From an uncultured Bacilli bacterium (GTDB taxonomy: Bacteria; Bacillota_I; Bacilli_A; RF39; UBA660): a stretch of DNA of 61,893 nucleotides. The notes under the pieces are model-generated. The model was not told the origin of the DNA. It saw only the letters and a list, made by a program, of their open reading frames with translations, and made no database searches. This document shows positions 9,178 to 9,541 of the stretch, piece after piece. Location: the NCBI GenBank assembly GCA_947628785.1, contig CANRBE010000001.1, forward strand, positions 1-61,893, given 5' to 3'. Positions within the stretch are counted from its first letter, which is position 1, and each line of letters begins with the position of its first letter. Made by a program: the position numbers and the translations under genes.

Positions 9178-9207
9178 TTGACTTTTTTTATTATTATATG
9201 TTAGTAT
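9178..9207 (+). promoter_or_regulatory. possible promoter for the plus-strand small-ORF transcript
   Basis: -35 TTGACT (9178-9183), 18-nt spacer (19 in copy B), TGtTAGTAT extended -10 (9202-9207). The spacer is longer than optimal. Confidence 0.35.
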
Positions 9208-9294
9208 ATCTTACTGAGACGTACTTTACTTTCAAGGGGTTTTCGGTATTTTCCCTTTTTATTTTAATTTTAAGATAGAAAGGTGATGATGCTT

Positions 9295-9402
9295 ATGAAA
9301 ATTTATTTTATAAGCTTTAATAAATATTATAAAACATCAAGATTTAACATCTTAGACTTTATTCTATTTATCATCAATGTTTACTTCAAAATAAAAAGAT
9401 AA
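9295..9402 (+). CDS. 35-aa aromatic/hydrophobic peptide MKIYFISFNKYYKTSRFNILDFILFIINVYFKIKR (candidate type I toxin-like peptide)
   Basis: AGAAAGGTGAT SD lies 7 nt before the ATG. The ORF and SD are 100% identical in copy B (51046..51153). Below the ORF-track length cutoff. Confidence 0.5.
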   Translation: MKIYFISFNKYYKTSRFNILDFILFIINVYFKIKR

Positions 9403-9404
9403 AC

Positions 9405-9506
9405 ATGAAAAACACCGTTTCCTATGAAAGCGGTGTTTTCCTCTAACCAAAAATTTAAAGGGAAATACCACTTAGGTATGTCTCTTTTTTATGAAGTTTC
9501 CTTCAC
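9405..9506 (-). ncRNA. predicted ~100-nt sRNA, convergent to and overlapping the 3' region of the small-ORF transcript
   Basis: Bounded by a near-consensus promoter (9513..9541) and the hairpin plus T5 at 9440..9405. No ORF. Ends are predicted, not measured. Confidence 0.45.
9407..9440. terminator. bidirectional hairpin shared by convergent units of module copy A
   Basis: GAAAAACACCGTTTC-CTAT-GAAAGCGGTGTTTTC. There is a T run on the plus side (T4) and on the minus side (T5). Confidence 0.55.
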
Positions 9507-9512
9507 GCTTTA

Positions 9513-9541
9513 ATAATATCATATTTTCTTTGTTTTAGCAA
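9513..9541 (-). promoter_or_regulatory. near-consensus sigma-A promoter for the minus-strand sRNA
   Basis: Minus strand: -35 TTGCTA (9541..9536), 17-nt spacer, TGaTATTAT extended -10 (hexamer 9518..9513). Copy B has TTGTTA with the same spacing. Confidence 0.5.

Follow-up and report, generated by a model that had tools for sequence, protein, structure and literature searches.

The par/Fst system (RNA I-RNA II) combines convergent promoters, a shared terminator, and a stem-loop that sequesters the Shine-Dalgarno (SD) sequence of the toxin mRNA, and chromosomal copies are known on core genomes (PMC7472228). Known type I toxin mRNAs are, more generally, highly structured and have a sequestered SD (PMC7472228). 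In txpA/RatA and bsrG/SR4, the toxin mRNA and its antisense RNA overlap at their 3' ends by more than 100 nt, and SR4 refolds the ribosome-binding site from afar, so that contact at the 3' end can influence an SD that is locked (PMC8464778). The E. coli ldr/rdl loci are, according to the account of Kawano 2002 given in PMC7472228, multi-copy direct repeats of ~0.5 kb that produce a stable structured mRNA for a 35-aa peptide together with an antisense RNA; in Bacillus, SR7/SR7P is a case of a small protein encoded on an RNA that also acts as an antisense regulator (PMC7834092). Here, we describe a cassette that occurs twice in contig CANRBE010000001.1 of an uncultured Bacilli bacterium, a stretch of 61,893 nt with 24.6% G+C that is referred to below as the window. 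In this cassette, a small open reading frame (ORF) on the plus strand and a predicted small RNA (sRNA) on the minus strand converge on one terminator hairpin.

An earlier sequence-only reading had proposed this region as a candidate type I toxin-antitoxin (TA) locus with RNAs overlapping at their 3' ends. The observation itself is confirmed, and its interpretation as a type I TA system is partly supported by the predicted features described below. We put the probability that the cassette is a true type I TA pair, young, duplicated, and possibly gated by Spo0A, at about 0.4.

Results

Two predicted transcription units converge on a shared hairpin

The plus-strand promoter, the ~80-nt leader, the SD with its 7-nt spacing, and the 35-codon ORF all lie where the sequence-only reading had placed them, as do the shared hairpin, the minus-strand promoter, and the T6 run (Table 1). 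The plus-strand promoter is suboptimal in its spacer of 18-19 nt, the longer form being that of copy B, and its -10 element reads TAGTcT in one of the copies from other samples (L001). The predicted plus-strand RNA is ~230 nt long, or ~275 nt with read-through to the T6 run.

A strong SD followed by an ATG at a spacing of 7-8 nt occurs at 27 sites on the two strands of the window. Most of these sites (21/27) precede ORFs that exceed 70 codons and are counted as real genes, and 3/27 head ORFs of fewer than 25 codons. ORFs of 25-70 aa are found only behind the two cassette copies and one gene-internal site, leaving the cassette copies as the sole intergenic small-ORF cases among the 27.

The plus-strand RNA is predicted to lock its own start site

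The plus-strand transcript from 9213 to 9445 (233 nt) folds at -56.5 kcal/mol (z = -5.9). Within it, the hairpin that pairs the SD with an upstream anti-SD segment reaches -12.9 kcal/mol, compared with -4.6 +/- 2.0 for shuffled sequences, of which 1/1000 attain this value, and the mean unpaired probability of the SD is 0.05-0.14. The start codon is enclosed by a hairpin of its own, in which the AUG has an unpaired probability of <=0.02. Folding energies of the leader region (9200-9299) are -24.3 (plus) and -9.9 kcal/mol (minus), a plus-strand specificity that stems from its G-U pairs. Significant structure is limited to 9200-9540, between both predicted transcription starts, and the conserved 150 nt upstream are unstructured.

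The antisense sRNA and the extent of the overlap

The terminator hairpin is common to both predicted transcripts, and the terminator stem-loop of the sRNA is the exact complement of that of the mRNA. Its folding energies are -13.3 (plus) and -17.6 kcal/mol (minus) in copy A, and -21.5 (plus) and -14.6 kcal/mol (minus) in copy B. The changes between the A-type and B-type terminators keep the pairing via G-U on the plus strand only. In 3/4 of the sequences compared (see below), the hairpin is good on the plus strand (-21.5 kcal/mol, then U5CUUU). Hence, the plus transcript most likely stops there, giving a default overlap of only ~35-45 nt. The T6 run at 9485-9490 is a possible alternative mRNA 3' end. 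The duplex of roughly 85 nt that the sequence-only reading had described for an mRNA ending at this run would form, at 86 nt, only with read-through of the hairpin, and ~35-45 nt of it are certain from the sequence.

Beyond the terminator, when the 5' domain of the sRNA was set against the translation initiation region alone, the pairing gave p ~0.03 in copy A and was not significant in copy B. An Fst-like second pairing site of the sRNA, considered as a candidate, is unsupported by the pairing tests in copies A and B. No Rfam family, cis-regulatory families included, matches the locus at the gathering threshold; the matches up to E <= 10 are all sub-threshold (E >= 0.39) and mostly driven by the terminator.

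The leader is complementary to the plus-strand sequence beyond the terminator

Downstream of the shared hairpin, the plus strand carries a segment, referred to here as the tail, that is complementary to the leader. Pairing between the leader (9215-9266) and the tail (9449-9485) reaches -32.0 kcal/mol, a value attained by 0/1000 shuffled tails (-14.3 +/- 3.0 kcal/mol). Viewed equivalently from the other strand, the motif GAGACRUAC...GGUAUUU(U)CCCUUU of the leader recurs in the sRNA; the repeat formed by leader and tail is inverted, not direct. In the long form terminated at the T6 run, the helix 9216-9224:9476-9484 forms with a probability of 1.0 and closes the extreme 5' end onto the sequence preceding the U-run. 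A second potential leader-tail helix would compete with the anti-SD and is not favored thermodynamically.

This complementarity indirectly backs a longer mRNA ending at the T6 run as a possible form. It could equally reflect an sRNA that mimics the leader.

The cassette is duplicated, and its transcribed core is nearly invariant

The second copy lies where the earlier reading had placed it, and SD and ORF are 100% identical between copies A and B. Four sequences were compared, comprising the two window copies and copies from other samples, where the copy A locus was recovered in L001 and L002 and copy B in L009-L012. Copy B is 100% identical in the four other samples. The copy A locus of L001/L002 is 99.5% identical to that of the window overall and 97.1% identical inside the cassette, and many of the differences are B-like, including the entire terminator and spacer segment, which points to gene conversion between the copies. 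A minus-strand ORF at 9364-9471 was discarded as its frame is broken by copy B indels.

Compared with L001 and copy B, copy A of the window differs by ~10 substitutions and indels within 9413-9457, all of them in the spacer or the 5' arm of the terminator, with both flanks identical. This cluster points either to gene conversion by a third, unseen copy or to a spacer that evolves fast. Three independent low-coverage assemblies (L010, L011, and L012) break within the invariant copy B core, which is what a repeated sequence would lead one to expect.

Across the four sequences, the segment that precedes the plus promoter has 25 variable columns in 146 nt, the leader 1 in 81 nt, and the ORF 0 in 108 nt; the terminator and spacer have 8 in 54 nt and the sRNA 5' domain 1 (an indel) in 53 nt. 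The difference between leader plus ORF (1/189) and the upstream segment (25/146) is significant (Fisher p = 4e-9), so that the transcribed core is constrained, or homogenized, far more than its own flank. Since the ORF lacks any variation, conservation does not separate coding constraint from constraint at the RNA level.

Empty sites in relatives point to a young insertion

Relative to the empty site of an outgroup (L030), 568 nt (9032-9599) are inserted in the T-run between the terminator of a hydrolase gene and the -35 box of spoIIP. The outgroup proteins are 62% (hydrolase) and 65% (SpoIIP) identical to those of the window, in the gene order ATPase-SIR2-hydrolase-spoIIP, and the 69-nt spacer (3946-4014) consists of a terminator, a T7 run, and then the spoIIP -35 box. 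In two relatives with hydrolases 88% and 80% identical (L026, 3831-3930, and L027), a pilin-like gene directly follows the hydrolase, and in two others (L013, 1286-1609, and L029), the pilin gene directly precedes spoIIP. All these contigs lack the cassette, and across four related lineages the corresponding sites are without it; the sister-lineage contigs, reached via the flanking hydrolase and SpoIIP, present empty sites, not diverged copies. Both junctions that differ among the relatives hold a cassette copy in the window; the cassette therefore marks rearrangement or insertion breakpoints.

No transposase, terminal inverted repeats, or clear target-site duplication was found at the copies. 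A miniature inverted-repeat transposable element (MITE) was considered, and nothing convincing by way of inverted repeats or duplicated target was seen, with only T-runs flanking copy A. The ~41 kb that separate the copies hold PolC, UvrA, RNase J, tRNA ligases, and tRNAs; the idea that this interval is a mobile island was rejected, as it consists of core chromosome genes throughout.

The sequence-only reading had proposed a search of related genomes for the peptide. Neither the cassette nor a similar small ORF turned up when the loci of 12 relatives (~160 kb) were searched with BLAST, nhmmer, and tblastn. An exact-pattern scan for the sRNA motif in 185,579 species genomes returned 0 matches, and blastn against plasmids and phages returned nothing. 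The motif common to leader and sRNA had six matches in JGI metagenomes and one in IMG/VR; the six metagenome matches were set aside as chance hits, lying in sequences of 32-59% G+C with no further similarity. From this evidence, the cassette appears to be a self-contained and young element that is confined to this species and has entered the core chromosome at two intergenic sites unrelated to each other.

Tandem Spo0A-box matches precede the plus-strand promoter

Endospore formers with SigG and SpoIIP are expected to encode Spo0A, and the host, which has both, should therefore encode it as well. A tandem match to the Spo0A box lies upstream of the plus-strand promoter in each cassette copy and nowhere else in the window. 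TGTCGAA is the core of the Spo0A box, with protein contacts at G2, C4, and G5 (PMC3485338), and a footprinted Spo0A site of phage Nf has two boxes 3 bp apart, including a TGTtGAA variant (PMC2731898). The cassette shares the direct repeat and 3-bp gap of Spo0A promoters with tandem 0A boxes such as phage phi29/Nf A2c, abrB, and spoIIG (PMC2731898; PMC3485338). Copy A has one perfect TGTCGAA box, and the TGTtGAA of copy B shows the same deviation as the footprinted phage Nf site. The cassette boxes, as putative binding sites, differ from these precedents in lying at about -72 to -56, where they do not overlap the core promoter. We infer that Spo0A may bind here and could act on the promoter in either direction.

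Genomic setting of the two copies

The window encodes the core proteins SigG, UvrA, PolC, RNase J, ArgRS, GluRS, and Pgm, together with tRNA ligases and tRNAs. SpoIIP and SigG represent the sporulation genes of the host, whose nearest species representative is an uncultured Bacilli metagenome-assembled genome from a sample labeled 'Lapin' (SpoIIP identity 75%). Of the 50 window ORFs of >=100 aa, 42 lie on the minus strand; the cassette ORF consequently runs against the prevailing direction of transcription and the sRNA runs with it.

The spoIIP gene has its own strong promoter, TTGACA-16-TATTAT (11/12 matches; 8999-9026), which abuts the left end of the cassette and whose -35 box and T-run are kept in relatives without the cassette. 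The left-end hairpin is a weak terminator-like element on the minus strand that closes the cassette just before this -35 box (9026-9021). On the other side, the hydrolase terminator hairpin (9600-9625) overlaps the hydrolase's own stop codon.

Several further repeats were seen in the window. Segments 2-118 and 52517-52633 are 99% identical and cover the start and upstream region of the pilin-like gene, which has an N-terminal methylation motif, so that a second pilin-like paralogue starts near 61 and runs off the left contig end. Adjacent paralogous segments (25362-26330 / 26669-28836 and 29925-30453 / 32974-33502) are 67-77% identical, and a PilC/GspF-like ORF (4871-7150) contains an internal tandem repeat (6502-6843). 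A near-perfect palindrome of 45 nt (93%) at 18869-18913 lies ~80 nt upstream of a tRNA gene (18995-19067).

Table 1. Predicted elements of the two cassette copies and their neighbors, in window coordinates.
Feature	Position	Strand	Details
Repeat unit, copy A	9021-9563		~545 bp; 92.5% identity to 50778-51314 (self-BLAST)
Left-end hairpin GAATAC-ataa-GTATTC	9044-9059	-	~-6 kcal/mol, then T8 run; present in copy B
Tandem Spo0A-box matches TGTCGAAttaAGTCGAA (TGTCGAA-tta-AGTCGAA)	9142-9158	+	3 bp apart; end 19 nt upstream of plus-strand -35
Predicted sigma-A-type promoter TTGACT-18-TGtTAGTAT	9178-9207	+	Predicted transcription start near 9214
5' leader	9214-9294	+	~81 nt; motif GAGACGUAC...GGUAUUUUCCCUUU (9216-9258) plus anti-SD
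Anti-SD:SD hairpin	9248-9290	+	Sequesters SD AGAAAGGUGAU; upstream pairing partner CCCUUUUUAUUUU
SD AGAAAGGTGAT	9277-9287	+	7 nt before ATG at 9295
AUG hairpin GCUUAUGAAA/UUUUAUAAGC	9291-9315	+	10 bp; encloses start codon
35-codon ORF MKIYFISFNKYYKTSRFNILDFILFIINVYFKIKR	9295-9402	+	TAA stop 9400-9402; invariant in 4/4 sequences
Bidirectional intrinsic-terminator hairpin	9408-9439		Common to both predicted transcripts
Tail	9449-9490	+	Complementary to leader 9215-9266; ends in T6 run
Predicted antisense sRNA	9403-9509	-	~100 nt; -32.6 kcal/mol, z = -4.5
sRNA layout		-	5' hairpin 9492-9505; A6 linker; second hairpin 9457-9484; variable spacer; terminator
Predicted sRNA promoter TTGCTA-17-TGaTATTAT	9541-9513	-	Near-consensus, extended -10
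Repeat unit, copy B	50778-51314		Same orientation as copy A; between pilin-like gene and TPR gene
Copy B tandem Spo0A-box matches TGTtGAAttaAGTCGAA (TGTtGAA-tta-AGTCGAA)	50893-50909	+	
Copy B plus-strand promoter	50928-50958	+	19-nt spacer
Copy B ORF	51046-51153	+	Identical to copy A ORF
Copy B bidirectional terminator (B type)	51159-51192		
Copy B predicted antisense sRNA	51155-51260	-	
Copy B sRNA promoter	51264-51292	-	-35 box TTGtTA
Copy B neighbor, pilin-like gene	51386-52576	-	
Copy B neighbor, TPR gene	49746-50726	-	

Discussion

A possible mode of action

If the cassette is a type I TA pair, both RNAs would be made, the ORF would be translated, and the peptide would be harmful. Translation we regard as slightly favored; toxicity is a tentative assignment, somewhat short of even odds. 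The first unit would yield a plus-strand RNA from the sigma-A-type promoter behind the tandem Spo0A boxes, with SD and AUG each locked in a hairpin, and the second, from its near-consensus promoter on the minus strand, the ~100-nt sRNA. An abundant sRNA could meet the mRNA at the complementary terminator loops and form a duplex of 35-45 bp, or of 86 bp on the read-through form, which would expose the mRNA to double-strand-specific cleavage and decay from its 3' end. The cis hairpins would keep any surviving mRNA untranslated. Peptide might then appear only when Spo0A~P, at the onset of sporulation, changes plus-strand transcription so that the mRNA outruns the sRNA.

Several results weigh against the type I TA reading. 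On the side of the RNAs, promoter-like matches are frequent by chance in DNA of 24.6% G+C (12 found, 6.8 expected), and the certain overlap is the ~35-45-nt terminator only. The sRNA 5' domain resembles the leader instead of complementing it, and its pairing with the mRNA is no better than that of shuffled sequences (213/300 reach the same value). On the side of the ORF, no synonymous or nonsynonymous change is seen in the four sequences, and the gene conversion evident between the copies could explain part of the ORF identity. None of the metagenome contigs examined has the ORF among its called genes. The codon and amino-acid log-likelihood of the ORF, -0.14 per codon, resembles that of a non-coding frame: spurious ORFs score -0.04 +/- 0.27 and real 35-codon segments 0.49 +/- 0.17 (n=475), none of the latter as low as the cassette ORF. 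The peptide has no match in a word-indexed search of 5.8 billion protein clusters, 0 matches in a full HMMER search over 1.84 billion cluster representatives, and none in Pfam, NCBIfam, or PADLOC, with no Fst/Ldr family returned from Pfam and NCBIfam. Its hydrophobic stretch spans only 15 aa, a window (Kyte-Doolittle 2.03) equalled by ~30% of spurious ORFs, and contains Asp21, Asn18, and Asn28; we take it to be unfavorable as a single transmembrane helix on the Hessa scale.

The sequence-only reading had already cautioned that the stretch is short and contains Asp and Asn, and it had recognized no known toxin family; the protein and hidden Markov model (HMM) searches returned none. The three polar residues appear, by our own reading, to fall on one face of a helical wheel. 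The basic C-terminal tail is equalled by 6% of spurious ORFs. A weak Ion_trans match (E = 0.15) was dismissed as noise, and a SpoVM-like N-terminus (MKIYFI, compared with MKFYTI in SpoVM) found no HMM support, such starts being common in AT-rich genomes.

Alternative explanations

The cassette could instead encode a pair of non-coding RNAs, in which the plus-strand RNA is structured and possibly Spo0A-responsive, the minus-strand RNA is its antisense partner or sponge, and the '35-codon ORF' and 'SD' are accidental parts of hairpins from which no peptide is made. The codon make-up of the ORF, the lack of a peptide homologue, and the uniform conservation across the ORF without third-position changes all fit this explanation, as does the fully paired state of both SD and AUG; a z of -5.9 for a 233-nt RNA also suits a structured RNA better than an mRNA. 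However, the mRNAs of known type I toxins are likewise structured with a sequestered SD (PMC7472228), and a strong SD with ATG is rarely spurious in this window (3-4/27 sites). A random frame at 25% G+C, moreover, stays open for 35 codons in only ~4% of cases by a rough estimate from base composition, and the ORF stops just upstream of the terminator, as real small genes do. We consider a purely non-coding pair unlikely, while granting it real weight. Less probable still is a translated but non-toxic product, namely a lineage-specific, sporulation-linked protein dosed by Spo0A and trimmed by the antisense RNA. The tandem Spo0A-box matches upstream of the ORF promoter, the sporulation genes of the host, with copy A adjoining spoIIP, and the poor showing of the peptide as a membrane toxin would suit such a protein, for which SR7/SR7P offers a precedent (PMC7834092). 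An arrangement in which both of two identical copies have an antisense gene of their own and a double translational lock is nevertheless more typical of products that must stay off, and the sequence gives no hint of a specific non-toxic function.

That the cassette is an inert duplicated or mobile stretch between genes, for instance a recombination scar or a MITE-like element, with its promoter-like hexamers, hairpin, and ORF arising by chance in very AT-rich DNA, strikes us as very improbable. Its insertion relative to the outgroups, its position at synteny breakpoints, its absence from every collection searched, and the chance frequency of promoter-like matches (12 vs 6.8 expected) would all be compatible with inert DNA. 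Yet the density of variable sites is ~25-fold lower in the transcribed core than in the upstream flank, and the significant RNA structure, which is strand-specific, reaches no further than the predicted transcription starts; terminal inverted repeats, a convincing target-site duplication, and a transposase are all missing from the copies, and the flanking genes have terminators of their own. A regulatory leader on the minus strand, in which attenuated read-through of the sRNA feeds spoIIP or the TPR gene, is barely plausible. Both copies do lie upstream of a minus-strand gene and in its direction, a second weak minus-strand terminator closes the cassette, and an sRNA segment, GGUAUUUCCC, can be read directly as pairing with the terminator 5' arm in an antiterminator-like alternative. 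Against this, the downstream genes start ~440 nt further on and have their own strong promoter (TTGACA-16-TATTAT, 11/12), kept in relatives without the cassette, and none of the cis-regulatory families in Rfam matches. As 42/50 ORFs lie on the minus strand, little can be read from the shared orientation.

An extended model and its implications

Returning to the type I TA reading, a more elaborate version would make the cassette a sporulation-gated TA system of a new family built around an unusual three-way RNA switch. Transcription of the toxin mRNA would continue past the shared hairpin as far as the T6 run, and the tail of the mRNA would close onto the leader, covering the 5' end and the anti-SD segment. 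As a mimic of the leader, the antisense RNA would be its rival for binding the tail, and the outcome would settle whether the ribosome-binding site can be locked by the anti-SD, with Spo0A~P setting the ratio of mRNA to sRNA at the sporulation decision. The cassette would spread in the genome by a transposase-free route, marking rearrangement breakpoints as it does so. Taken together, these assumptions make a quite improbable whole.

If the simpler TA reading holds, the cassette would represent a new type I TA family in spore-forming Bacilli of a deep, uncultured, and very AT-rich lineage, in which to our knowledge no type I TA systems have been described, and it would couple the choice to sporulate with a small toxic peptide. 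Control by an antisense RNA that resembles the leader would be an unusual arrangement. The cassette also indicates that such elements can be young: its absence in relatives whose flanking proteins are 62-88% identical means that homology searches cannot find it and that annotation pipelines miss it. Were the ORF untranslated, two well-defined structured RNAs, antisense to each other and preceded by a putative Spo0A site, would still be left.

Comparison with known systems

Like type I TA loci in general, the cassette has a small ORF with its own SD and a predicted cis-antisense RNA complementary to at least the terminator. The layout described by the sequence-only reading holds in its convergent promoters, small ORF with SD, shared bidirectional terminator, and multi-copy intergenic location; its likening to txpA/RatA and bsrG/SR4 holds less well, as the overlap fits par/Fst better. 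With par(pAD1) Fst, including S. aureus SprA1/SprA1AS, the cassette shares the convergent promoters and the shared terminator with loops that can 'kiss', the SD-sequestering stem-loop (9248-9290 in the cassette), possibly a helix that sequesters the 5' end, and a peptide of ~30-35 aa with a charged C-terminus. It differs in lacking the DRa/DRb direct repeats, the sRNA repeating the leader instead, and its peptide has neither a Trp nor the P/D/S/T-xxx-G motif and gives no Fst/Ldr HMM match (Pfam, NCBIfam E <= 10).

The Bacillus txpA/RatA and bsrG/SR4 systems share with the cassette a Firmicute host and a convergent layout with an antisense RNA that pairs with the 3' end of the toxin mRNA, although the likeness in overlap would hold only for the read-through mRNA. 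Their overlaps are 114-123 nt or more, whereas that of the cassette is ~35-45 nt, or 86 nt with read-through, and they reside on prophage or skin elements, whereas the cassette sits in the core chromosome. Its peptide has no similarity to TxpA, BsrG, BsrE, or YonT in any of the protein searches, and its hydrophobic domain is weaker. The E. coli LDR loci resemble the two 545-bp copies in being ~0.5-kb direct repeats with a 35-aa ORF and a cis-antisense RNA, but they belong to another phylum, Rdl overlaps the 5' region of the mRNA divergently, whereas the cassette antisense RNA lies at the 3' end, and no Ldr HMM match was obtained.

In hok/sok, long-range pairing between the 5' and 3' ends keeps the full-length toxin mRNA closed. 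The leader-tail pairing of the cassette would be similar, but only in an mRNA that extends past the shared hairpin, and the cassette antisense RNA targets the 3' tail, not the leader. The cassette is therefore best filed as a member of none of these families, as a candidate new type I TA or small-ORF/antisense cassette. Its kind is well known; the putative Spo0A link, the leader-mimicking sRNA, and the apparently very recent origin deserve attention.

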